Below, in pieces: positions 2,432-63,314 of a DNA stretch of 64,000 nucleotides (positions are counted from its first letter, which is position 1; every line of letters begins with the position of its first letter). The DNA comes from Fistulifera solaris (lineage: Eukaryota). Below the pieces are notes generated by a model. It did no database searches and had not been told where the DNA came from. It was given only the letters and a program-made list of their open reading frames with translations. A program made the translations under genes and the position numbers. The DNA is taken from contig AP026152.1 of the NCBI GenBank assembly GCA_030295235.1, positions 124,001 to 188,000 of the forward strand, given 5' to 3'.

Positions 2432-2600
2432 ATGAAAAGACAATTAACATCGGAGAACGGGCAAACGCTAAATAACGATAAGGTATAATAAGCAGAGGAA
2501 TGGCGGCCGCGGTTGCGGTTGCAGTGGATAGACCGTGAATTTTTGACAAGCTGCTTTTTTTAAAAGAGGTCTTTATTATCGAGCGCTCGAGAAGTCATCG
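2432..2600 (+). pseudogene. Internally deleted remnant of the BTB family (N-terminal stub plus C-terminal motif)
   Basis: ATG 2432 gives MKRQLTSENGQTLNNDKV*. About 2525-2585 reads IDREFLTSCF(fs)KRGLYY, matching IDRELLRNCLLSRGLYVV of the 20118 paralogue. No BTB core is present. Confidence 0.5.
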
Positions 2601-2994
2601 AGCGTCAACAAAAACGAGATTTGAAACCATGTAAGATGTGGGAGATTTGATTGCCGACGAAAAGACGCTAGTGCGCTCAATAAAAGGAACGTTCGCTGAA
2701 AAGCGATTGAGAGGTACCGGTAATTCCGAATCCTTCGCTAGTGTATTGCGGAATCTTTCACAAATTCAGGAACAAATCAAATTTAGAGCGATAAAAGGAT
2801 GCTTCGCAAGTAGAGAACTTCCTTGATCATTTCGAGTCTTGCGAGGGCTGGAGGCTGTCCAGATGATTTCGAAGAATTTTACCGTCCGATCAGAGATCGC
2901 ACGAAGAGAACATTGAAAAAGCATCGCATTTTCCTCGCATACATCGATTTACCTCGGTTTCGGTAGCCAATTCAACAGATCTGTTCAATCAATC

Positions 2995-3767
2995 ATGACG
3001 ACAAACGACAAAATTGTTCACTTGGATGTCGGAGGTACACTCTATAAAGTCTCCCGCGATACGCTCGAAGTTGCGAAGGCTCCATGCTAGCGAGTTTGAT
3101 CTCGGATCAATGGAAAGAAGGCAATTCGCATGAACCCATCTTCATCGATCGCAACGGTCGTTTGTTTGAGTACGTTCTCGATTATTTGCGAACGAACGAA
3201 GTATACTTACCATCCACGGTCAACGTTGCTGCTGTGCACAAAGACTTTGAGTACTACGGCCTCAATGTGGATATGAACCAAGTACAGGTAACGAATGACG
3301 ATAAAAAGCTTCATGAGCTCCAAACAAAGGTGCTTACACTGTTGGAGACCATCACACCCAAAAATGTTGCGAGCAACGACATCGTCCATTTCAATGTCGG
3401 AGGTACTCAGTATGACGCATCTCCGAATCTGTTCGGATATCATTGCGGAAGCCACGTGCTGGCGAGCTTGGTGAGGAACTCAAACGTTTCCGAGAAACAA
3501 TCCATTTTCATTGATCGCAACGGCCATTTATTTGCCTATGTCCTGGAATATTTGCGAACCGGCAAATGCAATTTGCCTATATCAGTGAGTCGTGACGCTG
3601 TTCGAGAGGAATTTGAATACTACGGTATACGTTTTGTGCCGCAGTATGACCAGGCATGTTTTGACGGCATTGCAAAGAAGCTTAACCAATTACTTCGCGA
3701 CCAAATTTGGAGCGACTCCATCGAGAAATCTAATCGGACGGTGATGTCCCATTGGCGGACGTCATGA
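2995..3767 (+). CDS. KCTD/T1-type BTB/POZ protein with two tandem BTB domains (1 frameshift near 3070)
   Basis: MTTNDKIVHLDVGGTLYKVSRDTL then MLASLIS...IFIDRNGRLFEYVLDYLR...FEYYG. Second domain: VHFNVGG...IFIDRNGHLFAYVLEYLRTG...EEFEYYGI. Confidence 0.88.
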
Positions 3768-4056
3768 CTATTTTTCGAATTGATAGTGAGAAGACCCTTG
3801 CGTACGTGATTTGAAGAGACAGGAAGATATCGAATTTTCGCATAACCTTACACTGCCGAGACTTTTGGACTTGGTATTATTTTCTATAGTGTGGTATTAG
3901 CAACGATCCAGCAAGTTTCAATGACAGTCGGCATAAGAAATACTTCGCTGTTATTTCCAGTTCAGCGGCCGGTGATAAGGGTTTTGCGCGTCAAACAGTT
4001 TTCTCAACAAAGTCAACAAAACTCTCAACGCCGATCGTAGAGTGACGAAAGACACC

Positions 4057-4733
4057 ATGTCCAAGATTGTCCAGTTGGATGTCGGAGGAACGCTTTACAA
4101 GGTCTCACGCGACACGCTCGAACGATGCGAGGGCTCCATGTTGGCCAGTTTGATATCGGAAGATTGGAGGGAAGGAAATTCGGATGAGCCGATCTTTATT
4201 GATCGTAACGGTCGACTCTTTGAGTATGTGCTGGACTACTTGCGGAACAACGAGATCCATGTGCCACCTTCTGTAAGTATTGCTGTCTCAAGAAAGAGTT
4301 TGAGTATTTCGGACTCTTGGAAAGCATTGTGGCAGAGGAAGTCCCAGCCGTCGTTGAGTTGGACGTCGGAGGCATGCTTTATAAAGTTTCACGCCAGGTC
4401 TTGGAGCGCTATAAGGATTCCAAGCTTTGGAAAATCGTATCAAGCCACTTTCAAACAGGTGTATTCGACAGCAATGGTCCCGTCTTCATTGACCGCAACG
4501 GTCGCTTGTTTGAGTATGTTTTGGAGCACGTGCGCACCGACGCATTGAGACTTCCCCCCTCAGTGAGTAACATTGCTGTTAACAAAGAATTGAGATATTA
4601 TGGAGTTGCACCCTATCAGATAATACAGTATGACACACGGTTCGACGAACTGGCGGAACAGATTCTATACGAGCTACTGGCAGTTACAGATTTGGGAAAC
4701 GAAATGGTTCACGAATTGCGATTCAATCGGTAG
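4057..4733 (+). CDS. KCTD/T1-type BTB/POZ protein with two tandem BTB domains (frameshift near 4290)
   Basis: VQLDVGGTLYKVSRDTL...IFIDRNGRLFEYVLDYLR. The second frame gives VELDVGGMLYKVSR...VFIDRNGRLFEYVLEHVR...ELRYYG. Confidence 0.88.
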
Positions 4734-5334
4734 TTTATGTACGAGCGGATCCTGCTGAACTTTTGCTTTAACCTTGGCACGTCTTTTTCGTGGTCTCATC
4801 ATCAGTGTCACGAAATTCACTAGCATAGCTGTTGAGATTTTTTAGTGAAAACAACGATGCTTCGTCAACATTTTCCTCTAAAGCAAATGTTCCATTCTAT
4901 GCTACTAATAACAATCTACAATATATTTGAGGTCTTTGTCGTTGGATTTTCGTGATGGTAACCTTGCACGTGAAGTTTTTGATGGGTCATCATTCTGGTT
5001 TGTGCGAGTCCCTAGACATTATTTAGAATCTCAAGGGACTTGAGGACGCATGCTTGAAAGGTGGGGTCGAGGTTATGCCAGTCCGCATTCACGAAAAGCT
5101 CCGCCGCGCTAGACCTCGAGTGAGCGCCCGTGATCCTCTCCAATTCACAAATCTTATGCATCATGTTCTTACGGTCTAGTATGGATCGTGCAATACACAT
5201 CACGTCAAACCAGCCGCATGTTTCTAGCGTCGACGCAAATTGAGCCGCATTGTCGTTGCCGCTACATCGTTTCAAATACGGCAGCTTGCGAGGAATTTGT
5301 CTCATAAATCTGGGCGACCTTACAATCATACACG

Positions 5335-5983
5335 ATGAGGAACGATTGTGAGAAACTGGTGCGATTCAACGTAGGAGGTACACACTATGATGTGTCGTAT
5401 GACACTCTGAAGCGCTGCAAAGACTTCGTCTATCCTTCTCAAGCTGGCGAGCTTAGTATCCGGCAAATGGGAAGAAGGCAATGGTAACAAGAAATCCACC
5501 TTCATTGACTGTGACAAGCAACCTTTTTCGATTGAGCGTGACGGAGTATTGTTTCAGTACGCGCTCGAGTATTTGCGAACGGGTCAGCTTTGCTTGCCGC
5601 CGTCCGTGAGCCGTGCTGCAATGAAGGAAGAGTTTGAATATTACGACATTGATGTTGATATGACGAGAGTCAAAGAGAGAAACGATGATGTTCATCTCGG
5701 CGATTCGATTATCAAGGACCTCAGCATGATTCTTGCCGAAAAACTGGCATTGCAGGTTGCGGCATACGTCGAGTATGATTTCATTCGAAGAAATTTACCT
5801 TCGACGGGCGGTGAAAGTGATTCTTCCTACTTACGATTACTCTCATTTAAAGACCCACGAAGACTTGTTGAGCGAGCGTTTACTTGCCAGAGGATTGGAA
5901 TACGTATCGAGCGAGTTCGATGGTACGCGAATTGGGTTACCGCCAAGAAGGCGGAAGACAACAGCAAATCGTTGAGAAAGTAG
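5335..5983 (+). pseudogene. BTB/POZ gene copy, disrupted (several frameshifts, small insertions)
   Basis: ATG 5335 gives MRNDCEKLVRFNVGGTHYDVSYDTL. After a shift: LASLVSGKWEEG, a duplicated FID/IERDG segment, LFQYALEYLRTG...EEFEYYDI. The C-terminal LLSERLLARGLEYV is in another frame. Confidence 0.75.
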
Positions 5984-6349
5984 ATATTCGTATGCGTTTA
6001 CGGCGAGCGTTCACGATGTTTCGAAAGTCCACCACCTAGCTAAGTTATCTGATAGCTGCGCGTGGATCTCTGCTTCAGATGAATTAGATAGATAACCTTA
6101 GCCTCGTTCTTCTTTCTTCAGTATGTGAGTGGCGAATGGCGATGACGTCAAACTGAATTTAGGAACCCCTTACTTTCTGCCAAACGGAAATGTCGCGTTG
6201 TTGACGCGTAATTTTGTACGAGGCTTAGCTATTTACCACGTGTTCACGGAAAAGCCACGCCTTCGATGCGGAAAGCCGGCGCTTGCGCACGTATTTTGTG
6301 CGTGGATTACTTGTGGTTCAAGAAAGGCCACGCGTTTTAAAGTGGTGGT

Positions 6350-6646
6350 GTGAAACGTGACATCGCGTAGACAGAGGTTAACCGGTACTGGATACGTGTA
6401 CATTCCTTTATAGTAGAAATAAGACTATCGGGTTAAATGTATGCTTAGGAAGAAAGGCTGCGTATCATCAATCATCAACGTGTTTTGTGAAAGTCTTTCT
6501 CGATTGTGACGTTGGGGGAGAAACGCCACGCAGACGTTGCGAGAAAGTCTCCCAAAATGACTCTTGAATGACAGAAACTCTCCCGAAATGACGCTCGAAA
6601 GGAGAAACGATGGTGGCACACGACAAAAGCGCCACGCGGACTTTCC
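6350..6646 (+). promoter_or_regulatory. Conserved non-coding module, copy A
   Basis: Ordered blocks CGGTACT...GAAAGGCTGCGTATCATCAA...GAAACGCCACG...TCTCCCGAAATGACG...AAAAGCGCCACGCG are shared with 7960-8230, 22171-22460 and 25577-25862. Regulatory function is inferred. Confidence 0.6.
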
Positions 6647-7082
6647 TTATACTTAGAGAGAGGATGCGGCCGAGCCGCAGTGGGTGGGCATGCATGAATG
6701 AGCGAGCATTTTCACGTTTATCTTTCGCGAAGAGGCCGAGCATTACTAATGTTTGAAGGCTATGTGGTGAGCATCTGCCACTCTAGACGCAAATTTAGCA
6801 ACTTTGCAAAGACGAAAAGCCAAGATGAAAACCGGATCGGTCGGACTTTTCCGTCCACATGAATTCGCGGCGTTACTTTCTGTCCGTTTTCGTAGTTTCT
6901 CGCAATCGTGCGACCGTTGTCGAAAACCATCCCCGACGAAGTTGGCTTTCCAGCACCAGTTCGCTGCTCAAAAGAATTCACTATTTTGGAAGAGTCCTAG
7001 TTATCGACTCTTTTAAAGCTTGGCTTTTGAACGATGACGAACGATGTCTCATCTCGAAGCCATGGCCAAACATTAAACACCG

Positions 7083-7751
7083 ATGCGCCGAAGGAAGCCG
7101 ATGAGTTTTCTTTATCAATATCAACGAGTCCACGAGTCAAAGCGAGATGACGTCGTTCACTTGAATGTAGGAGGTACACGCTATGAAGTAGCCCGGAGCA
7201 CGTTGATGCGCTACGAAGGTTCCATGCTGGCCAGTCTTGTTTCCGGCAAATGGAAAGAAGGAAATGGAGAAGAAGAGATCTTTATTGATCACAATGGCCG
7301 TCGCTTTGAATGGGTATTGGACTATTTGCGATCGGATCGAGCGTATGTTCCCGATCTATCGGATCAATCGGCACTCCAAGAGGAGCTGGACTATTTTGGT
7401 ATCGCTACCGATATGAGCAAAGTTTACTTGAAGGATGACTTTCTGACAATCAACGAGCTTAGTAAGGAGATCAAGGAGCTTAAAGCGACTATTGCGCAGA
7501 AAGAAAAGCGAATAGCCGCCATCAAAGAGTCGTATCGCTTGGCCGGTGTGTTCGCTAGCTATTCCGAAAGTGACGAGCTCCTATTTCGTATGAGTGTTGA
7601 CAAGAATGTCGACAAAGAGATGCTTCGCAGCTGCTTGTTATCTCGCGGACTCCACATTGTTCGATCCGGCAGTAAGAAATCCGGCGAAACGACAGTAACT
7701 GTATGTGCCTTTGGACAGAAGGAGAAATTTACGGCCAAGACGAAAAAGTAG
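7083..7751 (+). CDS. KCTD/T1-type BTB protein with coiled coil and C-terminal CLLSRGL domain (intact)
   Basis: Uninterrupted 222-aa ORF: VHLNVGGTRYEVARSTL...IFIDHNGRRFEWVLDYLR...ELDYFGI, heptad stretch ELSKEIKELKATIAQKEKRI, then MLRSCLLSRGLHIV. Confidence 0.92.
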   Translation: MRRRKPMSFLYQYQRVHESKRDDVVHLNVGGTRYEVARSTLMRYEGSMLASLVSGKWKEGNGEEEIFIDHNGRRFEWVLDYLRSDRAYVPDLSDQSALQEELDYFGIATDMSKVYLKDDFLTINELSKEIKELKATIAQKEKRIAAIKESYRLAGVFASYSESDELLFRMSVDKNVDKEMLRSCLLSRGLHIVRSGSKKSGETTVTVCAFGQKEKFTAKTKK

Positions 7752-7959
7752 AAAGAAACTGGTTGGACGCCGAATGTATCTTGAATTATTCACCTGCCTA
7801 TTTCAGTTTTATGCTTGTGTCAGTGCAGCTTTTATAATCGATGGCGTGTGATTTTTCTTTTAAGATTATCTTGTATTTTCTCTGCGTCTCTATCGATTGT
7901 AGTTTTATCTAAATGTAGGACCTTTAGTGATGATTGATGATGATTCGTGAAACAGCCGT

Positions 7960-8230
7960 TAATGTGACTCACGCATGAGATCTCACGAACAAAGTCAACC
8001 GGTACTCGCTGGTCAAGTAGTACTTCAAAAATCGTTTTTCGGTATGACGATTTTTGTACCGAAACGAAGAAACGCTGCGTATCATCAACGTGTTTTCTCG
8101 GAAACTTTCGCATTTTCGACGTTTTCGAGGAAACGCCACGTAAAGTGGGACGAAACTCTCCCGAAATGACGGAAAACAAAACGAGAACTCGGACACCATG
8201 AGAAAATGCCACGCGAAGCTATTATCCGCA
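7960..8230 (+). promoter_or_regulatory. Conserved non-coding module, copy B
   Basis: ACCGGTACT...GAAACGCTGCGTATCATCAACGTGTTTT...GAAACGCCACG...AAACTCTCCCGAAATGACG...GGACAC...AAATGCCACGCG. Closest to copy A. Confidence 0.6.
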
Positions 8231-9231
8231 TGTGACGATGAGCCTGTCGTGCGACAGCAGCACCACATTACGTCTTCACTTAGACTAGTTGGTCTTCCTA
8301 ATAGATAATGAATGAATGTTCATTGATTAATCGGCGAGATGGGCGAACTAATTTAGAAGCGCAGGGCGAAATATTCAGCGACCAATTAAATGAAGGCAAG
8401 ATAGTGACGACGAGTTCGCAAGAAGCGACAACCTTCCGGCTTCGTCTAGATTGCAAGAAAGAGCTTCCATTTTATTACGACGACAGGAATTGCAGCATGA
8501 TGAGCAACGACCAAGGCAATGACGAACGCATGATTGTTGGGTTCGATATGAGGAGAGCGATAGCCAAAGAAATGAGCGGCACGCATACTCAAGGGATAGC
8601 ATCCATGTCGACGGTTCATTCTCCTATCGATATCAATGAAGAAGAGAATTCGATCGTGACGAAAAATTTTTTATCATACAAGACGATCAGCAACCTCTCG
8701 GCGCCGACGGGAAAGAGGATTTTCCTCCACGCATGCTCCAACACTCGCCTCTAAGTGATCGAGCCGCGATTTATAAACAGGCTGGATACCATGATATGGA
8801 TGCAGTTTGGAATCATAGAGGGAGAGAGATGGTCGTGTCGTACAACCCGTCGACCACAGGAAACCAGAGTTCAGCAATTATCGAGAGCTCTTCGTCTACA
8901 AACAGGCTTGCAGAGATTGGTAACGAACGAACCTGGTTGAGTCGATTATCGACTTCTTGCCATCGATCAGCAATCCTACGCATCGTGAAATTCGTTTGGA
9001 TCGGCTACGCCAGCTTGTATATGCCACAGGTTTGGTATACGTCGCAAATGATTTGGCGGTTTGAATTTGGGCCGATGACGAGAACGCACGCGACAAACGA
9101 AAACGATCATGCAAGTGATGATATCGGGGAATGCAGGACGGATTGTTGCAATAAAATTGCTCCGTCGACTGCTGCTAAAAGGTGCCAAAGGAAGGAGACA
9201 ACTCATTGTCGAGAGGCGCCTCTCGCGGCAG

Positions 9232-9487
9232 GATCTTAGTGCGTCCGTTGCGGAAAAACTTGCAGCACAGGTATCTGCCGTTGTCGAATCACGATTTCAT
9301 ACGGAAGAATTTGCCGCATGCAGGTGTCAAGACCATCCTACCGACCAATGATTACTCTCATCTAGAACAACATCTGGATTTGTTGCGCGATCGATTACTT
9401 TCGAGAGGACTGGAGTATATTTCAAGTGATGTTGTGTCGAGTCGATCGTGGGTCTCCGTTCAGAACGCTGAAAATTGTTACTGGTAA
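9232..9487 (+). pseudogene. C-terminal remnant of a BTB-family gene (5335 subfamily), joined to unrelated upstream sequence
   Basis: DLSASVAEKLAAQVSAVVE / HDFIRKNLP...ILPTNDYSHLEQHLDLLRDRLLSRGLEYISS aligns with 5715-5940 (DLSMILAEKLALQVAAYVE...LPTYDYSHLKTHEDLLSERLLARGLEYVSS). No BTB core is found upstream. Confidence 0.72.
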
Positions 9488-9921
9488 GCAAGATGAGCGG
9501 ACAGCATTCAACGAGAAGTTTCCGACTGCAAACCATGGATGTTGATCCGTGTACACAGGTAGATTGAAGCGCTTCTGAGACCAATGAACGATCCGACTCC
9601 CGCTGACGGTGCCGTCTTGGAAAGCAGCTACCAGTACGATTCGGATTCTGATGATTAAGACGCTGAACTTGAATATTCATTGTTTGTTGATAACTCATAC
9701 TTTGTAACTTGAATGAATCAAAAGGCTTTGTAAAGCTGTTGATGTTATTTTTTTATAAAATGTGCTTTCGCCCGCGACTTGTTTCCAGTCATGAGATGAT
9801 ACTCAACGGACGCTGTGCACGAAAGCAAGATATAATGCGACGAGATGTATTTTATATTTCAAAGCAAAATACATGGTACGATCGTTTTTTTCACTATTCG
9901 ACACTACCTTAATACAATACA

Positions 9922-11832
9922 ATGAAGAGAAGTATTGAAGACCTGTCTCCGACGATTCGAGAAAACGCGATGCTGTTGTCTCTTGACGACGACGCTCATG
10001 GCAGTGTTGCTGCGTACGCGAGCCAGCGATCATCCGAGTATGAGACTTTCTTGTAAGCGCATTCGCGACATGATCGACTCGTTTCAATACCGAAAAGAAC
10101 GCAGCGTGCAAGGTTTTGCGGAAGTGAATGTCGATCTGCTCTCTGGTTTCGAGCAGTATCAGCTGTCAAAGAAATCGATGGGGAAGATCCTCCCAGTGAG
10201 GAAGATGATTACTTCGATGAAAATTACGATACATTTGGATACATTCATGAATACGGCGACCACTCATTTGAAAGAGATTGTTTTCGCGTGTTTGTAGACG
10301 GCCGTCCGCTGCACAAGCTTCGCAAAAGGGAAGAATTTAATTTGCATGTACGGCTTTTGCCACTCTGTGCCCCATTTTGGGATCTATGTGATTGCTACAA
10401 CCAAACCCTCTGCGATCTGGGAACTTCTTTATTTATCGATAAAGGCAAGCCCAAGGTCGCGTCGATCAAAAACGCAGTTGCTTGTAATGACGATTTCCCT
10501 TTACCAAGTCTGTTGTATATTCAAGACTTTGTCCTTCCTTTTGAACACCGATTTATTGGAGTCAACCGTTGGGCCGTTGCTCATCAAGGAAGTCCTGAAG
10601 CTCTTACTAGGAATGTACTCAATATCCATGTACGTCCCGTATAGAGAAACACAATTTACCAAAGAGGAAGCCGATGCTGAGAGAAACACACGCTTTCGTT
10701 TTGACGAAGAAAAGACGGATGAAGATATCTAAGCCGAAGAAGAGCGGCAAATTCGTTATGAAGCTTACAAGCACCAAGACATGCGACAGTTCTTTAGGGC
10801 TGGGTTTCAGCAAGTAAATGACCGATCAGTCGTAGAGAAGTCTGACTACAGCTATGTTTTCGCCTCTCCTGAAGACGCAAACGAGTCGATTTTAACGCTG
10901 GAAGAAACATTGAAAATACCTATCGCACGCAAAACGCCCACGCGACCGGAACCGAGGGGTTTAGCAAGGGAATTTTGGCTTCTCGTCAGAAAACAAATTT
11001 GCGAATGGGATGTCATGACCGAAGAGTTGAATAATCTACGCATACCTCCCCTCGAGAAGCCTTTGTTCAGCCCAAATGATTGAGGACTTTAACGGCAATG
11101 TGCAGCAATTAAGAGATCAAGAGGACGTGCTCAATACATCAATACAGGAGCGTGCACTGATGGCTCAAGACGTTAGCGCATTGGAGGAATCCAGAGAGAC
11201 TGTGCGCGATCTCGTCGTGACCTAGAAGAGAAGATCGACAAGTTGTGCAGTACATTGCAAACCGGATTTGCTGAAGCGGTAATTTGAAAGGAGGCAGAAA
11301 TGAAAACTTGGCAGGATGAAGCTCGAAACGAAGTAAAGACTATTATTGAGAAGGCGGAAAATATCCTGCAGCTGTTCTATGAATCGGATGTGATTCACGT
11401 TGCTGCAGCTGGGAAGAATTTGGATCAACTTTTGATGCTGCTTGATTTCGTGCCAGACTCCGACAAGCCAAAGGCTGTGAACGCACTTGATCGCTTAGGG
11501 CTAACACCTCTTATGGTATTGGCGAGCATCGCGCCTAGTGCTGGTTGACCAAATGTCGACAAACAATGGAGGCTCTAATCAAAATGGGCGCTGATACTGG
11601 TATCGTTCATGCTTCTAACGGTTTATCAGCTTTTGGACACTTTCGCGACAGTCACAAGCAAGAAGAAATGCCCGAATCATGTTTCGCTTACCAGAGCCAT
11701 CCGGCTGAAGTTAAAGCAGAAGTTTTATGAATTGAAGCGCTTCTACGCCCTGCCGATGGCCCAACCCCTGCCGACGGCTATATAGAAACAAAGAAAGAGT
11801 CAAATTCGGATGACGACGAATCTGATTATTGA
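9922..11832 (+). pseudogene. F-box-like / GNAT-like / coiled-coil / ankyrin-repeat protein, copy 1 (many indels, one in-frame TAA)
   Basis: Reconstructed start MKRSIEDLSPTIRENAMLLSLDDDA-LMAVLLRTRASDHPSMRLSCKRIRDMIDS (F-box-like). Then FWDLCDCY...LLYIQDFVLPFEHR...DMRQFFRAGFQQV, and ankyrin IHVAAAG...VNALDRLGLTPLM...LIKMGAD. TAA at 10730-10732 corresponds to CAA in the paralogue. Confidence 0.7.
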
Positions 11833-12082
11833 AAAGAGTATTTTGACTTCGGTTTAAATTTGCTCTTATATTTTATACGGAGTAAACCCTTTTTTCACCG
11901 TAGCCGCTGACACGACAGGTTTTAGTCACGAGAAAAATTCAGTGCCGCAAAAGATCTCCTCCGCCGCCTTCAGCGTTCGCGAAAATCGCGTCGCAGGCAA
12001 CAAATATAAACGATTAAGCATTCCGAATTTTGATCAAAACAAAAAGAGTGTGTGTTAGATTTTATGTTATTACTTCAGCAAT

Positions 12083-13981
12083 ATGCAGCAAAGTAAGGAA
12101 GATCTGGCTCTTCGTCGGCGAACGGCACTACTTTGCTCTCCCTTGATGACGACGCTCATGGCAGTGTTGCTGCGGACTCGAGCCAGCGATCATCCGAGTT
12201 TGCGACTCTCTTGTAAGCGCATCCGTGATATTATCGACTCGTTTCAATTTCGGAAAGAGAGAAGTGTGCAAGGTTCCGCGGAAGTGAATGTCGAACTGTT
12301 ATCGCCCGTTTGAGCAGTATAAGAAAACATCATCGTTCAGGGAAGATCCTCCCTCGGAAGACGACGATTACTTCCGTGATCACTACGATGAACTGGGGTT
12401 TATTTATGAATACGAAGACTATTATTTTGAAACATTTTGCTTTCGAGTGTTTGTGGACGGTCGTCCGTTGCACAAGCTCAAGACCGACGACTTCCAGTTG
12501 CAAGTCCGGATCCTGCCGCTTCAGTCTCCCTTCTGGAGCGCGTGTGATTGCTACAGTCAAGAACTCTGCGATCTTGGAACATCCTTGTTTACGAATAGTG
12601 GTGAGCCAAAGGTAGAATCGCTCAAAGGTCTCATTGATCCTGACTTTGGGCCTTATTACTTGCTCTATATTCAAGAGTTTATGTTGCCGTATGAATATCG
12701 ATCTCTCGGAGTCCACCGTCGGGCCAAATCTCATCAAGAGCATGCTGTGGACTTTTGGTGGATGGTACTCAATTGCTCTCTACATCCCTTATAAAGATAC
12801 ACAGTTTACAATGGAAGAGGCTGACGCTAGGAGATATAGAGAAAAGTTCACTTTTCGGCGATGAAGATGAAAGAACCGATGAAGAAATCCAAGCGGAGGA
12901 AGAACAACAGAAACGGCATGAAGTTTTGAGAGAGCAAGATATGCGTCAATTTTTCAAAGCTGGATTTCATCAAGTCAATGACCGGTCTATTATCGAGACC
13001 TCGGAGTACAGCTACGTTTTTACAACCCCTAAAGATGCCGAGAAGCCGATTCTATCCGTGGAAGACGCATTGAACAAGCCTATTGCACGCAAGACACCCA
13101 CAAAGCCGGAAGCGACAGGTCTAGCACGGGAACTTCAGCTTTTCGTCAAAAAGAAAGCTATCGAATGGAATGGCATGGTGGAAGAGCTAAAACGATTACG
13201 GGACCCCTCTTGGGGGTTCTAGTATCGCCAGTGAGTTTGACGCTTTTCTGGCCAATTGCAGCAGCTACGAAATCAGGAAGACATGCTCACCAATGCTATG
13301 CACCAGCGTACACTGATGGGCATGGATAACCGTGAGCCGGAGGAAGAGACGTAGTTCGCTCGGCGCGAGTCGCGATAGAACAGAAAATTGATCAAATGCG
13401 CAATCTATTGCAAACAGGGTTCGCTGAAGCATCACAGCGCAAAGAGGTTGAGTTCGAGGCTTTAAAAGCAAGCACTCGCGGAGAAATAAAGTCAATTGTT
13501 GACAAGTCGGAGAGCTCCTTGCAGCTTTTTCTGGATTCTGATGTGATCCACTTTGCGGCAGCGGGGAATACTATGGATTTGCTGGAGATGCTGCTGGAGT
13601 TATTGCCCGCTTCAGAAAGGTCAAAGGCGTTGAACGGGTTCGATCGCTTAGGACTCCACGCCTCTCATGGTTGTAGCAAGCATAACTCCCAGCGCAGGTA
13701 TATCCACTGGTCGTCGTATTATGGAGACTTTAATCAACATGGGAGCAGACAAGAACATCGTTCATGCTTCTCAGGGTCTCTCCGCATTGGGACAATTCCG
13801 AAGTCACTACAAGGCCGCACAGTTACCTCGTATACTTTTTGGCTTGCAACAGCCGTCTTCCGAGGTCCAAGATGAAGTGTCGCGGATTGAAGCGCTTTTG
13901 AGGCCTGTCAATGGCCCCACTCCTGAGGACGATGCTCAGTTAAACAAAAAGTCCGAGGCAGATTCAGATGGCGATTTTTGA
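12083..13981 (+). CDS. F-box-like / GNAT-like / coiled-coil / ankyrin-repeat protein, copy 2 (frameshifted as assembled)
   Basis: Colinear paralogue of 9922-11832 with many synonymous third-position differences. Motifs: LLSLDDDA-LMAVLLRTRASDHPSLRLSCKRIRDIIDS, LLYIQEFMLPYEYR, DMRQFFKAGFHQV, IHFAAAG...LNGFDRLGL, LINMGAD. Confidence 0.7.
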
Positions 13982-15902: not shown

Positions 15903-16681
15903 ATGAGTACTTCTCATGACGAAATACTGCTAGAGGATCAAGGGGGCAGCCGCGAAAAGAGCAGCCAACGGCAACACAAAAGTAGATTACTCTTCTTCTC
16001 CTTTATCGGCTCGCATGGAATCAAAAGGCAGCGCAAGAAGCGAAATTATTCGACTGAACGTCGGAGGTACACATTATGAAGTATCTCTTGACACGCTGGA
16101 ACGTTGTAAGGGCTCCATGCTAGCGAAATTGGTGTCGGGGCAGTGGAAAGAAGGCAGTTCGGAAGAGCCCATCTTTATTGACCGCAACGGTTTATTGTTT
16201 CAGTATGTGCTCGAAAATTTACGCACCACCAAGTTCCATTTGCCTGATTCGGTGAGTCCAGGCGCTGTTCAAGAAGAACTCGAGTATTTTGGAATAGATG
16301 CCGATATGGGCCTTGAGTCCGGGAGATACAACAACCATTATTTCCTCGAAAAGGCAAAAGATATCATCGACAGCATGCAAGGGCAAGCGGCGTACCGAGC
16401 TGCCGAGGAAAGCTCTCGAGTGACGGAAAAAAATCATAGAAAAGCAAGAACTCGTGTTTTTTGTCATGATTGAATATTACAAGATAAATCCATCCCCTGG
16501 AGCTGAACTTCTGCTCAAAATACCTTTGAAGTATCGCCGAATTTGTGATTCCTCTTGGGTTAAAGAAGATTTGCGAAGACGAGGATTCGAAATCTTGGCG
16601 ATAGGCGAATCGTCTGAAACCATGCGGATCCGAAAGATAACGCAAGCAAACGAAGGTATGAAAAAACGACGAATTTCTTAA
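15903..16681 (+). CDS. KCTD/T1-type BTB protein, IEYY subfamily (frameshifts at the G-run near 15945 and the A-run near 16430)
   Basis: ATG 15903, AKRAANGNTK leader, IIRLNVGGTHYEVS...IFIDRNGLLFQYVLENLR...ELEYFGI. C-terminal MIEYYKINPSPG...KEDLRRRGFEIL. Confidence 0.82.
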
Positions 16682-17758: not shown

Positions 17759-18460
17759 ATGCCTGTAATTTCGCAAGAGGATGCTTCTGTTAGCGATTAT
17801 CACCGATCCGGCAAAAGGGATGCGGAGGGTAATGCTAAAAAAGATTATGATGATTCTTCTGCTTCCTCAAATGGCAGGCCCGATCGACAACGAAGGCATA
17901 AGATTGTTCAGCTAAACGTGGGAGGGAAGCATTACGAAGTTTCAAGGGACACCCTTGAACGCTGCAAGGGTTCCATGCTGGCGAGCTTGATTTCCAGCAA
18001 CTGGAGAGAAGGAAACTCGGACGATAGCGAACCGATCTTCATTGACCGCAACGGTCGCCTTTTTGAGTACGTACTCGACTACTTACGAACCAACAAAGTA
18101 CACGTGCCGCTTTCGGTAAGCCGATCGGCCTTACAAGAGGAGCTAGAATACTTCGGTGTCGACGCAGACATGAGTCAAGTGATTGACATGTATAGCGTGC
18201 GTTATCTTCGGGTGATTGAAGAAAAACAACAATTCCACGAAGCGAGATCATTGCATTATCTGAGAGAAGCTAATGCAATAAAGGCATCCGTGCATCTTGA
18301 GAACAAAGCGGTCATCCATAGACTACCACCAAGGATTAGCATACCTGAAGAGTATCGGCCATTCGACTTGGAGACATTAGAAAAATGCTCGGAGCTACGC
18401 GGACTAAGAGTGTCCCTCCCTGCTGGCAACACGAATACTGTCGAAGTAGCTCTTAATTGA
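17759..18460 (+). CDS. KCTD/T1-type BTB protein (intact)
   Basis: 233-aa ORF: KRDAEG leader, VQLNVGGKHYEVSRDTL...IFIDRNGRLFEYVLDYLR...ELEYFGV, C-terminal TLEKCSELRGLRVS. Confidence 0.92.
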   Translation: MPVISQEDASVSDYHRSGKRDAEGNAKKDYDDSSASSNGRPDRQRRHKIVQLNVGGKHYEVSRDTLERCKGSMLASLISSNWREGNSDDSEPIFIDRNGRLFEYVLDYLRTNKVHVPLSVSRSALQEELEYFGVDADMSQVIDMYSVRYLRVIEEKQQFHEARSLHYLREANAIKASVHLENKAVIHRLPPRISIPEEYRPFDLETLEKCSELRGLRVSLPAGNTNTVEVALN

Positions 18461-18882: not shown

Positions 18883-19587
18883 ATGAAAGTATCTCAATCA
18901 CCCACAACTGAACAAAACAGAGTCGCAAAGAGAAACGCAGATGGTAGCTTAAAGTTCGATGTTGAACCATCGACGACAGTTGGCTCTCCAGCTAAAACGA
19001 ATATCGATATCGTACGTTTGAATGTCGGAGGCATCCGCTATGAAGCATCCCGTGATACTTTGACAAGATACAAGGAATCCATGTTAGCAAAACTCGTATC
19101 CGGTACATGGAAAGAAGGCGACGGCGCAAACGAGATCTTTATTGATCGCGATGGCGAGCGTTTCAAATACATTTTGGACTATCTACGCAACGATCGTGTC
19201 CATTTGCCCGACATTCCTAGCCAGAAAGCTCTCGAAGCTGACTTTGATTACTTTGGTATTGATGCCGACATGAGTAAGATTTCCGTGATGGACGACTTTT
19301 CCGCCATCGAGGAACTCAACTTGCAAATCTTGGAGCATATAAAAGACATTAAGGAGAAAAAGATGAGGGTCGCTGCCATTCGAGAATCGTATCGCTTGGC
19401 TAACAAATTTTCTCGCTTCGCTGAAGGGGGGTCACGCCAGGCTTCTTATCGAGGAAGATATTAACAAGAAGATACTCAGTAGTTGTTTGCTAGCACGCGG
19501 ACTGCACGTTATTCGTTTCGATATGAAAAGGAGTCGGGCACACATGTGCTTTTATGCATTCCCAGCATGAAGAGTACGTGGGTGTAG
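18883..19587 (+). CDS. KCTD/T1-type BTB protein (frameshift in the G-run near 19428)
   Basis: KRNADG leader, VRLNVGGIRYEASRDTL...IFIDRDGERFKYILDYLR, coiled coil. The shifted frame gives EEDINKKILSSCLLARGLHVI. Confidence 0.88.
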
Positions 19588-20117
19588 TCGATTTGACAGA
19601 GAAAGAAGGAAAAAAGCGGCTGCTTTTTGTCGCGAATTCAGATCCGGGACAAAGCGATGAGAATCGAACTTAACGTAGGCATAACTTCACAGCTTTCTGG
19701 ATTGCATGCTGTAACATTTCAACTTGTTAATTGAGATCGCACCGTATCATTCGACTGTCAAAGCTTGCACTACACCTTGTAGCTAGAACGTTTCACAGCC
19801 CTTGTACCTAAAACGTCCAAGTCCAACGGCGTCACTCGGCAAAATCAACCCTTAGCCATAAGCGGCCCGCAACAGCATGAGCAAAAGATACGTTTTTCCT
19901 TCCTTTTTCACGATAAAATCTTACGAGGTCGCAGAATTCGTGTGGCATTCTACGAAGATAGACGTAAAGGCTCATCGTCACACCAGAATTTAACGCCAAA
20001 TGCCGGCCGTCTACTCCCGCTGGTCAACAGCAACACGACACTCTTCGACGCAACAACTCTTTGCATTCGAGCGTCTTGACATTCACACATCTCATCTTTC
20101 ATCATTAGTCAAATAAA

Positions 20118-20858
20118 ATGCCCAATACTCGACGCGAATTACTTCGTGCAAATAATCTGCGCCGATCGAAGCGAAATGCGGACGGTCAACCCAAGCAAGA
20201 TGATGCTTCGTCTCGCGCAAACACCATTTCACCGACAAATGATCAATTGCCGGCCACCGTTCGTTTAAATGTCGGGGGTACGCATTATCAGGTAGCGCGC
20301 GACACGTTGATGCGCTATGAAGGATCGATGCTGGCGACGCTGGTATCGGGCAACTGGCGCGAAGGGGACGGGCGAGAAGAGATCTTTGTGGACCGCGATG
20401 GAAAACTTTTCGGATTAGTCTTGACCTATCTCCGATGCTTTCGAGTCTACGTATCCGATTTCGCCGAACAAGCAGCTCTGAAAGCTGAACTGGATTACTT
20501 TGGAATCGATGTGGATCTGAGCAAAGTTATGGTGAAGGATGACTTTGCGACTATTCACGAACTTAGTAACGAAAACAAGAACTACGAGCGACTCATCGAA
20601 GCAAACAAGAAGAAAATTGCAGCCATTCAAGAGTCGTATCGCATTGCGGGGAGTTTTTCGAGATTGATCGAGAAGCATGATCGGCTTTACGTGCGTCACT
20701 GTCTTACCAACGGTATTGATCGAGAGTTGCTACGTAACTGCTTGCTATCTCGTGGATTGTATGTTGTTGCTTTCAGCCAAAGAGAGTCGGGCCAGGACGC
20801 AGCCGACATTTGTGTGGTAAGCATGAAAGATAAAATCCGCCCGGCTTCAGCAAATTAG
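20118..20858 (+). CDS. KCTD/T1-type BTB protein (intact)
   Basis: 246-aa ORF: KRNADG leader, VRLNVGGTHYQVARDTL...IFVDRDGKLFGLVLTYLR...ELDYFGI, coiled coil, IDRELLRNCLLSRGLYVV. Confidence 0.92.
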   Translation: MPNTRRELLRANNLRRSKRNADGQPKQDDASSRANTISPTNDQLPATVRLNVGGTHYQVARDTLMRYEGSMLATLVSGNWREGDGREEIFVDRDGKLFGLVLTYLRCFRVYVSDFAEQAALKAELDYFGIDVDLSKVMVKDDFATIHELSNENKNYERLIEANKKKIAAIQESYRIAGSFSRLIEKHDRLYVRHCLTNGIDRELLRNCLLSRGLYVVAFSQRESGQDAADICVVSMKDKIRPASAN

Positions 20859-21135
20859 GTCCGGCAGTGTTGGTGCTTGAAAGTACAACTTGCTCGAAAT
20901 ATTCCGTGATCTGTAGCCTCGACACCTAAACTGCATGTAGAACCGTTTATTTCATTTGTACTCCTAGATAGCAATTCCCATCACATTTCACAACAGCAAA
21001 CAAGAAAAGGCGAAAGCTTAAATGTTCGATTTGCTTGAACGCGCGAGTTCTTTGTTCGCGAAATGAAGAAACCATGACGCTGCGGCAATGATCTTTAAAG
21101 AGCGAGGTCAAAAAAGCCGACAACTGTAAAAATAA

Positions 21136-22167: not shown

Positions 22168-22170
22168 TAA

Positions 22171-22460
22171 GTGCGTGCGTTTTTTGCGCGAAATTTCAAA
22201 CGACACAAACAAGGTGCAGCGGCACTCAGTCGGTACTATGATAGGCTAAGTACACAACGCCTTCGCTTCAATGTATAGTAGTTAGAGTAGACAGAAGAGG
22301 AAAGCCCGCGTTTCTTAACGTCACCTTGCGCGAGGCTTTCTCGCTTTGAACTTTGAACAGGAAATGCCACGTCGTTTTCGAGAAAGCATCTCCCAAACTG
22401 ACGTGACGGATACGACAAAGCGGACACTTTTGTCAAACGCCACGCGTGCGCCTTGTCCGC
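22171..22460 (+). promoter_or_regulatory. Conserved non-coding module, copy C
   Basis: Aligns end to end with 25577-25862 (TGCGTGCGTTTTTTGCGCGAA...CGGTACTA...GCTAAG.ACACAACGCCT...GAGGAAAGCC.GCGT...GGAAATGCCACGTC...CTGACGTGACGGATA...CGGACAC...CAAACGCCACG...TGTCCG). Confidence 0.65.
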
Positions 22461-22717
22461 GTGTAGTGACAACATTGTTGTCATAATTACGCATGCACAT
22501 GAAACCAAACAATTATCAGAGGCAAACGCACCTCGTGCTCTTCGCTCCAAAGAATGAGTTGCACCGTGGTACTCAATTTACTGTGAGGGAGCATTACAAG
22601 AGGATGATGAACGACATTGTTAGGCCTGCAGCGCTATTTCTCTCCCAACCGTCACGGGCGAGTTTGATTTCGTTCCTTTCATTTCTCGCATAATTTTTCC
22701 CGGTTCATCGCATTCCT

Positions 22718-23518
22718 ATGTTATCTCCGAGCAATAAAACTTCTGCGAAAATGGGTTCCTTTGTTGAAGACTTGTTTTATTCCCTGGTCGCCGCTTTTGC
22801 TTGGTTGCGAGTACCCATAATGAACTTTCTAGTCAAGGCCTCTGGCGCCGACGATATCAAATTCCTGTCAAAGGGCGAAGCACACAACAAATTGGATGGT
22901 TTTTTGTCGTCAGGTGTGTCTTGTATTCAAGCACGGAACGAGACTATTCGATTGAATGTCGGAGGCCTACGCTACGAGGTATCCCGTGATACTTTGACTA
23001 GATACAAGAAATTCCATGTTAGCAAGTCTTATTTCAGGGAAATGGAAAGAAGGCGATGGTGAAAGCGAAATCTTTATAGATCGTGATGGTGGGCGTTTCA
23101 AGTACGTGCTGGACTACCTTCGCTCGGATCGAGTTTCGGTGATCGATCGACTGGACCGCGCTGCGCTTCAAGAGGAGTTCGATTATTTCGGTATCGATGC
23201 CGATACGAGCAAAATCTTCATGATGGATGATTTTCTGTCAATCGACGCACTCGCGAAAGAGATCAAGGCTTATGAAGCGGTTATCGAGGAGAAAAAGAAG
23301 ACAATTGCTGTCATTCAGGAATCGTATCGCTTTGCTGGAAAGTTTGCAACCGCTGTTGATCTCAATGGGACTTGTCTGAAATTTGAATTGGAGAAAGACG
23401 TTGATAAAGAGCTTATTCGTGGTTGTTTGCTGTCGCGTGGGCTGTCCGTCGTTTCTTACGGCATCAAAAGCAAGATGTATTTACTGTGAATCTACGTCCC
23501 GCCGGCGAGAAGGCTTAA
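22718..23518 (+). CDS. KCTD/T1-type BTB protein with hydrophobic N-terminal extension (frameshifts near 23010 and 23470)
   Basis: LFYSLVAAFAWLRVPIMNFLV leader, IRLNVGGLRYEVSRDTL, MLASLISGKWKEG...IFIDRDGGRFKYVLDYLR, LIRGCLLSRGLSVV. Confidence 0.85.
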
Positions 23519-23975
23519 CAATAAGGTCATACCCAAAGTAGGCAAGGTTTGCTTATTTACATTTGCTCGACGTGTCATTCAGCACAAGAGCTTCGTTCCG
23601 GTCAATACGGATTTCGTAAAGCGAAGATCTCAACTCCATCCACTTTTAGGACTAAGAGCGCTAGGTCCAAACAAGAATAAGCAGCTCATCGTTCGCTTTT
23701 CCTCGGTATTGGAAGAAATAAATTGGTGAAGTTTGCTCAAACTCAATCATCCGTAATAGAGTCACGAGTGCTGGCGACTGAACATATTAGTACCGCTCAG
23801 CTGAGTAGACGTTCTGTATAAAAGGCCCGAAAAATCATGCCAACAATAAACAAAATGCAAAACCGTGTCCGTTTGTTCGTTGACGAAGATACGAGTTTGC
23901 GGGAAACGAACACATATGTTCACAACAAGTATTCATTCTCTTTCATTTCTTTTACCTTACAAAAATCGAGTAACC

Positions 23976-24701
23976 ATGTCAAGTTTTCAAGACGAAACCT
24001 CTCCGATGAAACGCCACAAAACCGCGAAAAGCGATGCGGGAGGTACGAAGACAAGCAATGCTTCTCCTCGGTCGTACATCGCCAATGCCACTTCACCAGA
24101 CAGCAAATTGGCTCCAATCGTTCAGCTGAATGTAGGAGGCACACTTTACAAAGTATCCCGCGACACGCTGATGCGCTATGAGGACTCGATGCTAGCAAAT
24201 CTCGTTTCGGGCAAGTGGAAAGAAGGTGAAGGCGACGACGAAATCTTTATAGATCGCAACGGACGACGTTTCGAATGGGTAGTTGACTACTTGCGCTCGG
24301 ATCGTGTGTATGTACCATCTTTATCGGATCAATCGGCACTAAAAGATGAATTTGACTTTTTTTGTATTGATGCCGAGATGAGCAAAGTATCGGTCGTGGA
24401 CGACTTTATGTCAATTGAACAACTTACGAAAGAGATCAAGGCGCACAAAGGGATCATTGAGCATAAAAAGAAGAAGATAGCTGCCATGAAAGAGTCGTAT
24501 AAGCTGGCGGGAAGATTTGCGAATGCTGTCGATCGTCATGGGACGTTTATGGAGATGACAATCGAAAAGGACGTCGATCAAGATCTGCTCAGCAAATGCT
24601 TGCTATCGCGCGGACTGCACCTTGTTTCCTACGCCAGCAACGAGACGGGTGCACCTGTGGTAAACGTCTGCCCTATCGGAGAGAAACATCATTTTCTTTA
24701 G
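23976..24701 (+). CDS. KCTD/T1-type BTB protein (intact)
   Basis: MSSFQDETSPMKRHK...VQLNVGGTLYKVSRDTL...IFIDRNGRRFEWVVDYLR...coiled coil...LLSKCLLSRGLHLV. Confidence 0.92.
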   Translation: MSSFQDETSPMKRHKTAKSDAGGTKTSNASPRSYIANATSPDSKLAPIVQLNVGGTLYKVSRDTLMRYEDSMLANLVSGKWKEGEGDDEIFIDRNGRRFEWVVDYLRSDRVYVPSLSDQSALKDEFDFFCIDAEMSKVSVVDDFMSIEQLTKEIKAHKGIIEHKKKKIAAMKESYKLAGRFANAVDRHGTFMEMTIEKDVDQDLLSKCLLSRGLHLVSYASNETGAPVVNVCPIGEKHHFL

Positions 24702-25576: not shown

Positions 25577-25862
25577 TGCGTGCGTTTTTTTTTTTGCGCG
25601 AAGCTTCAAACGTCACAAAAAAAGTCACAAAAAAGAAGCGGTACTCATACGGTACTAGTTCGCTAAGAACACAACGCCTCCGCACTATGTATCGTATAGA
25701 GAGTAGCCTGGTGAGGAAAGCCTGCGTATTTTGACGTCACGCTGCACGAGGTTTTCTCGTTTTCACGGAAATGCCACGTCCCGTTCAAGAAAGGGTCTCC
25801 CCCTGACGTGACGGATAGCAAATTTCGGACACGTTTGACAAACGCCACGTGCGCCTGTCCGT
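25577..25862 (+). promoter_or_regulatory. Conserved non-coding module, copy D
   Basis: See copy C. Same block order and orientation, with no transposon at its 5' edge. Confidence 0.65.
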
Positions 25863-26057: not shown

Positions 26058-26281
26058 CTCGAACGGTAAAATCTTAAAAAAAAAACAAAATGGTCTTTTT
26101 CTCAATGATCGAGTATTACAAGGTCATTCCCTCCCTTGGAACTCCCATGTCAATTATTATTCCGGAAAAGTACTGCGGAAGAAATGTTCAATGGTTTTTC
26201 GCGAATAATCAAGGAAGAGTTTGGGAAAACGAGGACTTGAAAGTCGACAATAGGCGTTACGAAAACACCAATATCATATAA
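26058..26281 (+). pseudogene. C-terminal remnant, IEYY subfamily
   Basis: VFFSMIEYYKVIPSLGTPMSIIIPEKYC aligns with VFFVMIEYYKINPSPGAELLLKIPLKYR (16454 onward). The BTB core is absent. Confidence 0.65.
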
Positions 26282-26590
26282 AGAGCAATCCTTTCCCGCT
26301 GGTGATAAGTCACCCTTTGATATCGAGCGTGGCTTTATTTTGCGAAGATTCAAAGCATGTGTGTGTTAAGCAGGGTATTTCTTCTGAATTCACTATGTTT
26401 CAATATCAAGGGACGGTCAACTATGTGTAAAACACGGACACGACGACGTATACATTCAGCGAGGGATGAATATTCGCCGACCCTGTTCAAAACGGATCCA
26501 ACTTTCATGCAACACATTGATAGAAAGCATTGCCTCCCTTCACAATTTTGAGCCTTACGAAGGAGGGATTGATAAACCAAACGTTCCGAC

Positions 26591-27199
26591 ATGACGACGA
26601 AAGACACGAAAACGAACCGACAAAAGGTTCGTTTCAACGTCGGTGGTACGCATTACGACGTATCTCGCGATACGGTCGAGCGTTGCGAAGGCTCCATGCG
26701 GGCGAGTCTAATATCGGATCGTTGGAAGGAAGGGAGCACAAAGAGTGACGATCCCATCTTCATTGACCGCAATGGGTTGCTGTTTCAGTATGTCCTGGAT
26801 TACTTGCGCAACGACAAGCTGCTGCTCCCTAGCTCAGTGAGCCGAGCTGCCGTCGCACAAGAGTTCGAGTACTACGGAATCGACGCGGATGTCGCGAAAG
26901 TGAGTGAGAAATACGGACCTATGTATCTTAGAGAGCTCAAAGAAAGGATTTGCGAGCAGAAAATTTACTTGGAATTGCTGGAAAATGAAGCTCGTGCAAT
27001 TCAGGCGTCCACATTCGTTGAAAACGAGTCGTTTAAGCATCAATTACCAGTCGATATTCGCATACCGACTGAATTTGTGCCTTTTGATGCGGAAACGCTT
27101 CGTGAATGCTCGGATCTCAAGGGGCTGATTGTGACCCTTGTACAATCCTCTGGTTCATCTAGCAGTACATCTGTTACTGTCAAAGAGAAGTCCCGCTAG
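26591..27199 (+). CDS. KCTD/T1-type BTB protein (intact)
   Basis: 202-aa ORF: VRFNVGGTHYDVSRDTV...IFIDRNGLLFQYVLDYLR...EFEYYGI, YLRELKERI coiled coil, TLRECSDLKGLIVT. Confidence 0.92.
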   Translation: MTTKDTKTNRQKVRFNVGGTHYDVSRDTVERCEGSMRASLISDRWKEGSTKSDDPIFIDRNGLLFQYVLDYLRNDKLLLPSSVSRAAVAQEFEYYGIDADVAKVSEKYGPMYLRELKERICEQKIYLELLENEARAIQASTFVENESFKHQLPVDIRIPTEFVPFDAETLRECSDLKGLIVTLVQSSGSSSSTSVTVKEKSR

Positions 27200-27879
27200 T
27201 GGTGTCCTACTCAATCGATCAGGCGTAAAAGTTGATGGTGTGTCTTTTATCCTTTACCGTTCTCGATTGCCGGTGCTTTAGTCTTCATGAATTGTAGTTG
27301 GATTGCAATAACTGTAGTATAATGTAATCGATGACTATGACAAATTTGTAACAGACTTAAGCATCCCTTCGCACCTCATCACTGAACGCGAGGGTCCTGC
27401 AAGGCCTTGCAGCAAAGGTGCTCGATGTGAGGTACTGTCGTTAATGTTGATCGGTGAGTCGCCCTAGGTGTTAGAATTAATTATCTCTCTTAATATTATG
27501 GTTTTGTTCGCCGTCGTTCGTACCGACTGAGCAGACTAAGGGATCGGTGACTCGCTTCTTGAGGAGTCCTTTTTAGTTTTCTGTCAACAACTTTTTCAAA
27601 GCCGGAACCCTATTGAAAGGGGGGTTCCTGGTAAAAATAAGCGACAAAATAATAAAATACACGATGGTCTTTTGGACAAAGAGTTTCATTGAACCAATAC
27701 AGTGACAAAATTGTTTCCAATACTGTAATTAGGCTGTTAAGATGATGATCGGAAACAGCATTAGTTTACCCTCTCGATTCTGTATTGACTTACGACGGTT
27801 TCTTCTGTCCGTTTCTTTCTCAATCATCGTCGAAAACAATCATCAACGAAGAAACATCGTTTCAAGAAAACCTTCGGCT

Positions 27880-28316
27880 CCGTGGAAGAAACGAAATTTG
27901 TATTGATCGCAATGGACGACGTTTCGAGTGGATCTTGGACTATCTTCGCTCGGATCGAGTCTACTTGCCTGACCTCTCGTGTCAAGCAGCTCCGAAGGAT
28001 GGATTTGACTATTTCAACAGACGACTTCGTTGCCATTGATGAACTCGCCGAGGATCAAAGTGCATGAAGCGATCATTGATCGAAAAAGAAGAAAATAGCC
28101 GCCATCAAGAAATCGCATCGCGTGGCGTCCGAGTTCTCGAATGTTGTTGAAAAGTACGGGCTGTATTTGCAATTTTACAAGATCGGTGAAGATATCGACC
28201 AGGAGGTGCTCCGGAGCTGCTTTCTGGCTTGGGGACTGCACGTTCTTTGTGACGGCAGCAAACAGGGTAGTGGTATTACTGTCAATATATGTCTCCCTTC
28301 AAGGAAAGACGAATAG
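27880..28316 (+). pseudogene. 5'-truncated BTB pseudogene (7083/23976 subfamily)
   Basis: EICIDRNGRRFEWILDYLRSDRVYLPDLS...FDYF, an internal deletion and frameshifts, then DIDQEVLRSCFLAWGLHVL. The NVGG start is missing. Confidence 0.8.

Positions 28317-61892: not shown

Positions 61893-63314
<1,422 letters not shown>

Follow-up and report, generated by a model that had tools for sequence, protein, structure and literature searches.

Clustered families of cullin adaptors, with a conserved cullin-binding module, a variable second domain, gene loss and copy-number instability, are known from the F-box and MATH-BTB expansions of nematodes and plants (PMC4334554; comparisons here and below are with excerpts of the papers cited). 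In diatoms, 4594 tandem genes are described for Seminavis robusta, with lineage-specific expansions being common and including leucine-rich repeat (LRR) proteins and ubiquitin ligases (PMC7335047), and KCTD-like families vary in size (PMC13149256). Here we describe an array of KCTD-type BTB genes from Fistulifera solaris, an allopolyploid diatom with two subgenomes (PMC5935921). The window, by which we mean the whole stretch of 64,000 bp that was analysed (G000:C32:124001-188000, contig AP026152.1), comes from a genome of 51.7 Mb in 62 contigs, and its proteins matched NCBI entries FisN_14H and FisN_14L of Fistulifera solaris. On balance we favour the reading that this is an old tandem cluster of KCTD-type genes, co-regulated in appearance and partly redundant, which encodes probable CUL3 adaptors together with a small F-box-ankyrin family and is now contracting unevenly in a hybrid genome. 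Its role is best read as stress-related or physiological proteolysis.

The features listed above for the nematode and plant expansions are all shared by the diatom array. It differs from them (PMC4334554) in having an N-terminal T1/KCTD BTB domain, no MATH domain and one homologous tail domain, in comprising tens of genes rather than hundreds, in its common upstream module, and in the lack of detected positive selection or recent BTB births. Its proteins resemble CUL3-binding human KCTDs, such as KCTD7 and KCTD5 (PMC10856315), in the BTB_2 domain, the short alpha2-beta3 loop, the contact residues, the small size and the order of an N-terminal BTB and a C-terminal domain. Unlike human KCTDs, the diatom proteins have a tail that belongs to no consistent Pfam family and is preceded by a coiled coil, and their genes are intronless, in tandem and in some cases endowed with two BTB domains. 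A single KCTD array with a common module and an F-box-ankyrin family also sets the locus apart from the Seminavis robusta arrays as described (PMC7335047). Three things make it distinctive: KCTD-type proteins with a C-terminal domain of their own, a module confined to the array, and two classes of adaptor at one site. Little of diatom defence and regulated proteolysis has been mapped, and this one locus holds most T1-BTB genes of the species, an unannotated F-box-ankyrin family and a candidate shared control module. A search of titles and abstract openings, which left most subscription papers outside it, found no description of this array.

The array extended from approximately 90.9 kb to 152.3 kb on contig C32, about 61 kb, and the window held its right-hand 26 kb. 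The original prediction, drawn from the sequence of the window, had delimited a 26-kb cluster beginning at 2432; this has to be replaced by the longer array, and the region between 2160 and 3000, including the ATG at 2432, had no blastx match to the BTB family. A transmembrane LRR gene had been placed immediately to the left of the cluster; the gene is present (Table 1), but as the array reaches left to about 90.9 kb it is internal to it. The predicted set of about 12 near-complete, intronless T1/KCTD-BTB genes on the + strand was confirmed by Pfam BTB_2 searches and frameshift-aware mapping, which located 12 between 2995 and 27199; three of these carried two BTB domains, giving 15 domains in the window. 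About five remnants had been expected; remnants exist, but three were confirmed (a BTB-family tail, an F-box 3' end and a half BTB). On C32 37 units were mapped, 35 of them with a full BTB, compared to 14 units, 10 with a full BTB, on C33. The two contigs are homoeologues, with collinear blocks that are about 75-89% identical. The C32 array also contained the LRR gene, a U32-peptidase-like gene and another unrelated gene. A profile search gave at least 53 BTB_2 matches genome-wide, a lower bound as for large families, with 46 lying within the two arrays. A second small BTB_2 cluster of three hits was seen at G000:C9 1160317-1163834, with further hits at C10 591504 and 1140931. An orphan member of the array family was also present about 270 kb away on both homoeologues (C32 419820 and C33 422443), with a dN/dS ratio (omega) of 0.30 in the core and 0.37 in the tail. 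The 62 loci returned by a metagenome scan were all distant, and an array was seen at none of them. No BTB relative and no upstream module was found in viral contigs, and there is therefore no support for a viral origin.

Matches of more than 150 bp between BTB paralogues of one contig reached at most 81% nucleotide identity and were confined to the core (overlapping windows on tandem genes aside), whereas nine full homoeologue pairs showed 80-89% nucleotide identity over approximately 600-690 bp. No paralogue pair was as close as the homoeologue pairs and none was younger than them, and all BTB duplications therefore predate the subgenome split. The BTB tree, a quick tree of 105 columns that was mostly unresolved, was used for terminal pairs only. 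Two of the 12 window genes had an intact partner on C33. Transposon open reading frames (ORFs) occupied the positions on C33 (108.7-112.3 kb and 122.8-125.2 kb; L041-L043) at which two blocks of BTB genes were missing relative to C32. One of these inserts was a Copia-type retroelement (RVT_2, zf-CCHC, Pol_BBD); the other was a transposon-like ORF with no Pfam match and with relatives on C24, C31 and C37, which we take to carry a tyrosine-recombinase-like motif. The history of the array, as judged from these comparisons, is one of ancient birth and recent death. The birth-and-death evolution originally proposed is thus upheld by the losses and the unequal copy number (35 versus 10), but not by any young BTB duplicates. 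Unequal recombination would have built the array before the parental lineages of the allopolyploid diverged; since the split, a core of copies would have been kept by ordinary purifying selection and redundant copies lost, mostly from one subgenome.

Nei-Gojobori analysis of ten homoeologue pairs gave an omega of 0.104 (0.081-0.130) for the core and 0.172 (0.14-0.21) for the tail. Control ORFs ranged from 0.02 to 0.33, with a median of 0.13, in 22 of 23 cases, the remaining ORF having been dropped for want of a homoeologue match. The highest tail omega, 0.52, was seen in two of the ten pairs, one of which was a tail-only pseudogene. For 16 subfamily-A genes, model M0 gave an omega of 0.12 for the core, 0.19 for the coiled coil and 0.27 for the C-terminal domain, and comparison of M7 with M8 revealed no class with omega above 1 (p=1). 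These site models were run in our own implementation with a fixed topology and scaled branch lengths; their power is lowered by the age of the paralogues, and subfamily-B tails were too poorly alignable for a site test. Rapid diversification of the tails was not supported. Weighing against a history of ordinary purifying selection, the dN/dS estimates are biased to conserved survivors, with 10 of the 12 window genes lacking an intact homoeologue. For some members an almost one-to-one orthologue existed in other samples, with 87-90% and 81% identity that extended through the tail; the 117.2k gene was 97% identical between the subgenomes and 87-90% identical in other samples, again including the tail. 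P0027 and P0017, from other samples, had no counterpart in the array regions compared (best matches 60% and 58%), and presence/absence variation is therefore suggested. Copy number is thus unstable, as had been anticipated, but some members are near one-to-one across samples; uniform purifying selection with stable orthologues, named beforehand as the opposite outcome, applies in part, in that omega is like that of the neighbours and some orthologues are nearly one-to-one.

These results bear on the proposal that the locus is an anti-pathogen proteolysis island that is caught in an arms race and combines a constant cullin-binding module with fast-diversifying tails and a linked LRR receptor. 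Tails do evolve at about twice the rate of cores, the subgenomes differ about threefold in copy number, and P0027 and P0017 lack a counterpart; moreover, two unrelated adaptor classes share the locus, the F-box-ankyrin family occurs only here in the genome, and a common module would permit joint induction. However, the defining mark of the nematode families is positive selection in the substrate-binding domains (PMC4334554), and here no class with omega above 1 was found, the two high tail values including that of a pseudogene. Recent BTB duplicates are absent, the 117.2k gene is conserved between subgenomes and samples, and the LRR gene is itself conserved and from a large dispersed family. 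With purifying selection like that of the neighbouring genes, the anti-pathogen island remains unsupported and we regard it as doubtful.

A typical array protein comprised a BTB domain, a coiled coil predicted by reading the sequence (Pfam coiled-coil matches were weak) and a C-terminal domain of approximately 70 residues. BTB_2 (PF02214) was N-terminal in all 32 aligned members and no channel domain was present. The 46 PDB matches were nearly all to BTB domains of KCTD, Kv-T1 or Kelch13 proteins, a mixture of CUL3 binders and non-binders (KCTD16, KCTD7, Kelch13, KCTD15). A single hidden Markov model (HMM) of the C-terminal domain recognised most members, from both subfamilies, which makes the tails homologues that have diverged; the predicted combination of conserved cores and C-termini diverging into subfamilies was correct as to the cores and the greater divergence of the tails, which are nevertheless homologous. 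The C-terminal domain matched no Pfam family consistently, did not match the tail of KCTD14 (P=0.26), and yielded only weak structure rows and no usable match among ESM features.

Contacts between KCTD7 and CUL3 include M76, M80, H85, D98 and Y131 (PMC10856315). These aligned to M, L, W, D and Y/F in the array, H85 with W across a one-residue gap, and 28 of the 45 full BTB domains retained all five positions (in the window, 10 of 15 domains and 10 of 12 genes). The M-to-D spacing was mostly 21, compared to 22 in KCTD7, and the alpha2-beta3 loop was short as in KCTD7; the KCTD16 loop is 5 residues longer. The genome encodes CUL3, a CUL1-like cullin and SKP1 (4 matches), and helix 2 / helix 5 of the diatom CUL3 keeps equivalents of F54/Y58/R59/Y62/D121/R128. 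The conserved BTB members are likely to bind CUL3, and the view that the KCTD-type BTB and F-box genes are putative cullin adaptors is supported as probable by the retained contact residues and the presence of the cullins and SKP1. The proteins would oligomerise through the BTB domain and recruit CUL3, while the tail would pick substrates or partners. Several points count against this: at least one of the five contact positions was lost in 17 of the 45 domains, KCTD7 R65 and D74 are not generally kept, and the top PDB match is KCTD16, a CUL3 non-binder. In addition, several KCTDs do not bind CUL3 and global identity cannot separate them from those that do (PMC10856315).

The proteins could alternatively work without CUL3, as oligomeric scaffolds or regulators in the manner of KCTD1/15 or KCTD8/12/16, or as modulators of T1-type channels, the F-box neighbours being coincidental. 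The best PDB matches, which include KCTD16, KCTD15, KCTD1 and Kv4 T1 domains, would be expected on such a reading, as would the second BTB of the tandem genes, in which the contact residues are lost. Relatives of the array BTB proteins start with basic clusters, and an N-terminal KR-x-A-x-G motif in a low-complexity extension is common to several of the BTB genes (15903, 17759, 18883 and 20118); we take these basic N-termini and extensions to be possible nuclear localisation signals, which would also suit a scaffold. However, loop length and contact residues resemble those of the binder KCTD7 and not of KCTD16, and the channel domain is absent, so that we consider this alternative unlikely.

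A block of approximately 165 bp was repeated in the spacers, always on the + strand, with 12 clear copies on C32, four of which lay in the window, and nine on C33. In 19 of these 21 cases it lay 200-1140 bp before the next start (510-590 bp in eight); the other two precede remnants. BLAST of the module against the genome placed 14 of 14 matches in the arrays, and its core pattern had 81 matches genome-wide, 23 of them in the arrays, with 51 for the reversed control. The module was more conserved than both flanks in all nine homoeologue pairs. The C32 modules at 102725 and 121014, which are 18 kb apart, shared an identical run of 100 bp and were closer to one another than the 121.0k copy was to its homoeologue, which points to recent gene conversion between them. 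Sequence inspection revealed TGACGC, TGACGT and CCACGT boxes, similar to the ACGT-type cores of diatom CCRE and aureochrome sites (PMC7378808, PMC4937327). The CCRE and aureo-box elements of Phaeodactylum likewise consist of clustered TGACGT, ACGTCA, TGACGC and G-box-like cores upstream of genes; unlike them, the module is a dyad-symmetric block of about 165 bp, found in about 21 copies 200-1100 bp before start codons, and is a candidate bZIP target.

The module was an imperfect inverted repeat (78.6% paired, versus 31-55% when slid), and some single copies folded well (RNA z -5.0 to +0.3, mean -1.7). A hairpin, a structured RNA and an integron-like cassette were considered and rejected, as covariation did not exceed that of shuffled alignments (0.099 versus 0.113), RNAalifold gave no consensus fold and there was no Rfam match. 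Being an inverted repeat without covariation or an Rfam match, the module is read as a set of double-stranded binding sites. Joint switching is probable because many copies carry the same ACGT-rich module; a bZIP-type factor would probably switch the module-bearing copies together on a physiological or stress cue. Against such co-regulation stand the presence of a clear module at only about one third of loci and the position of the 8062 copy before remnants. From two possible RNA runs, contigs were obtained at 1631-1827 and 17063-17410 only and none on the BTB genes, which is no evidence either way. The contig at 17063-17410, 217 nucleotides long and from run X3, lacks 17187-17317, an interval bounded by GT..AG on the minus strand; it represents a spliced antisense transcript from between two BTB genes and contains no long ORF.

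A more far-reaching proposal is a jointly inducible ubiquitin-ligase island of diatoms, in which a bZIP-controlled module would induce many KCTD subunits. These would form hetero-oligomers that act as mixed CUL3 adaptors, so that targets could be recognised combinatorially with no need for rapid sequence change, and an SCF adaptor of an undescribed F-box/GNAT-like/ankyrin type would stand beside them; such an island would adapt to parasites by presence or absence of genes among strains and not by point diversification. We consider this quite unlikely. Genome editing has reportedly been achieved in Fistulifera solaris. A mostly neutral array with few functional genes, whose copies are spread and deleted by recombination and whose module is a recombination or mobility site (cassette-like, or like a miniature inverted-repeat transposable element) and not a promoter, could account for the converted modules, the inverted repeat and the transposon ORFs where C33 lost gene blocks, but is very unlikely given the lack of covariation above shuffles, of an RNAalifold consensus and of dispersed module copies, and given that old paralogues without homoeologues mostly keep open frames at a subfamily omega of 0.11-0.27, because of which most copies are taken to have been long under selection.

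The two embedded F-box-like genes that had been predicted were both found (Table 1), with PF00646 above its cut-off at 12146-12310 of the window and in all four full-length relatives (P0055-P0058; 20.6-23.6 bits). They encode approximately 635 residues with an F-box, a middle domain, a coiled coil and ankyrin repeats. Clustering at 50% identity left 338 representatives of this family (P0195-P0342 among its members), one member carrying zf-MYND; an F-box was present in 24 and Ank_2 in 27 of 43 aligned members (E<=0.01). The F-box-ankyrin family is thus widespread but unannotated. All 19 matches to it in the genome were inside the arrays, with two genes and a remnant on C32 and three genes on C33. 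The middle domain had no Pfam or PDB match; alignment to GNAT with hhalign gave a weak match (P=0.0016, probability 16%, 40 columns) compared to P values of 0.43-0.62 for three controls. Its ESM features were GNAT-like (0.79-0.81, a lead only), and the glycine-rich loop (motif A) looks degenerate. The F-box-ankyrin proteins are probably SCF adaptors that would bind SKP1, and the family, in the same locus as the BTB genes, is decaying likewise.

Comparison of window positions 901-20900 with the short-read contigs of runs X1 and X2, the latter an independent wetland run, revealed 70 indel rows in 20 kb. Ordinary neighbouring genes differed from their homoeologues by 0.75-3.6 frame-changing indels per kb. 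Many of the apparent frameshifts are long-read indel errors, and three window genes are truly broken in X1. All 11 gap letters of the X1 contig over 2117-8140 fall elsewhere than 3070 and 4285, so the frameshifts near these two positions are real in X1. At the stops of F-box gene 1 (10730 and 11285), X1 contig 5 agreed with the window, with 0 other letters; since X1 confirms both stops, this gene is a pseudogene in X1. The remaining frameshifts between 12.5 and 20.9 kb were, taken together, compatible with the 23 gap letters of X1. Over 2294-5904 run X2 had seven gap letters, five of them common to X1; the other two could correspond to those at 3070 and 4285, in which case both tandem-BTB genes would be intact in that strain. 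The apparent decay of an immune-looking birth-and-death cluster in raw long reads is therefore partly indel error, and calls for caution; no arms-race signal was seen here.

Table 1. Features of the array and its embedded genes in the window (positions in bp from the first letter of the window).
Feature	Position	Strand	Remarks
Transmembrane LRR gene	54..1953	-	N-terminal transmembrane segment, LRRs (Pfam LRR_1/4/8), no kinase domain seen
Tandem-BTB gene, no C-terminal domain	2995..3767	+	Frameshift near 3070 real in run X1
Tandem-BTB gene	4057..4733	+	Frameshift near 4285 real in run X1; two-BTB layout also in P0019 (another sample)
BTB gene, divergent core	5335..5983	+	Frameshifts are assembly errors; indels 5425, 5806, 5929 in both X1 and X2
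Upstream module, ACGT-box cluster	6448..6645	+	About 510 bp before the 7034 gene
BTB-coiled coil-C-terminal domain gene, intact (FisN_14Hu057, P0063)	7034..7751	+	Homoeologue present; 2-base assembly error at 7141
Upstream module	8062..8231	+	Decayed BTB and F-box remnants follow
Remnant: BTB-family C-terminal tail without BTB	9179..9484	+	Tail HMM E 6e-8; blastx
Remnant: 3' end of a third F-box-ankyrin gene	9562..9612	+	Repeat family D17; ends of the two F-box genes 63% and 75% identical
F-box/GNAT-like/coiled-coil/ankyrin gene 1	9922..11832	+	82% to P0056; pseudogene in X1, in-frame stops 10730, 11285
F-box/GNAT-like/coiled-coil/ankyrin gene 2, probably intact	12083..13981	+	9 frameshifts, no stops; F-box 21.7 bits; many X1 gaps
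Tandem-BTB gene, divergent cores and tail	14501..15600	+	End approximate
BTB-coiled coil-C-terminal domain gene	15903..16681	+	Frameshifts probably errors
BTB-coiled coil-C-terminal domain gene, intact	17759..18460	+	P0025 100% identical
BTB-coiled coil-C-terminal domain gene	18883..19590	+	3' frameshifts probably errors; end approximate
BTB-coiled coil-C-terminal domain gene, intact	20118..20858	+	
Upstream module	22296..22461	+	Before the 22.7-23.5 kb gene
BTB-coiled coil-C-terminal domain gene, two frameshifts	22718..23519	+	Beyond the read-covered stretch
BTB-coiled coil-C-terminal domain gene, intact	23976..24701	+	Homoeologue FisN_14Lh065 89% identical
Upstream module	25712..25855	+	Before the 26591 gene
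BTB-coiled coil-C-terminal domain gene, open frame	26591..27199	+	
Remnant: BTB gene without N-terminal half of BTB	27815..28316	+	

The LRR gene had one homoeologue and an omega of 0.116. LRR_8 matches numbered at least 142 genome-wide, with 150 of 382 candidates scored, and the gene is one of the conserved, unexceptional members of this large dispersed family and probably a bystander at this locus. To the right of the array, between 28414 and 33560 of the window, the neighbouring genes (two glycosyltransferase-8-like genes and another, presumably pyruvate-kinase-like) were also frameshifted relative to their homoeologues, which matches long-read indel error. Local inversions relative to C33 were present at 49626-53000 and 61931-64000 of the window.

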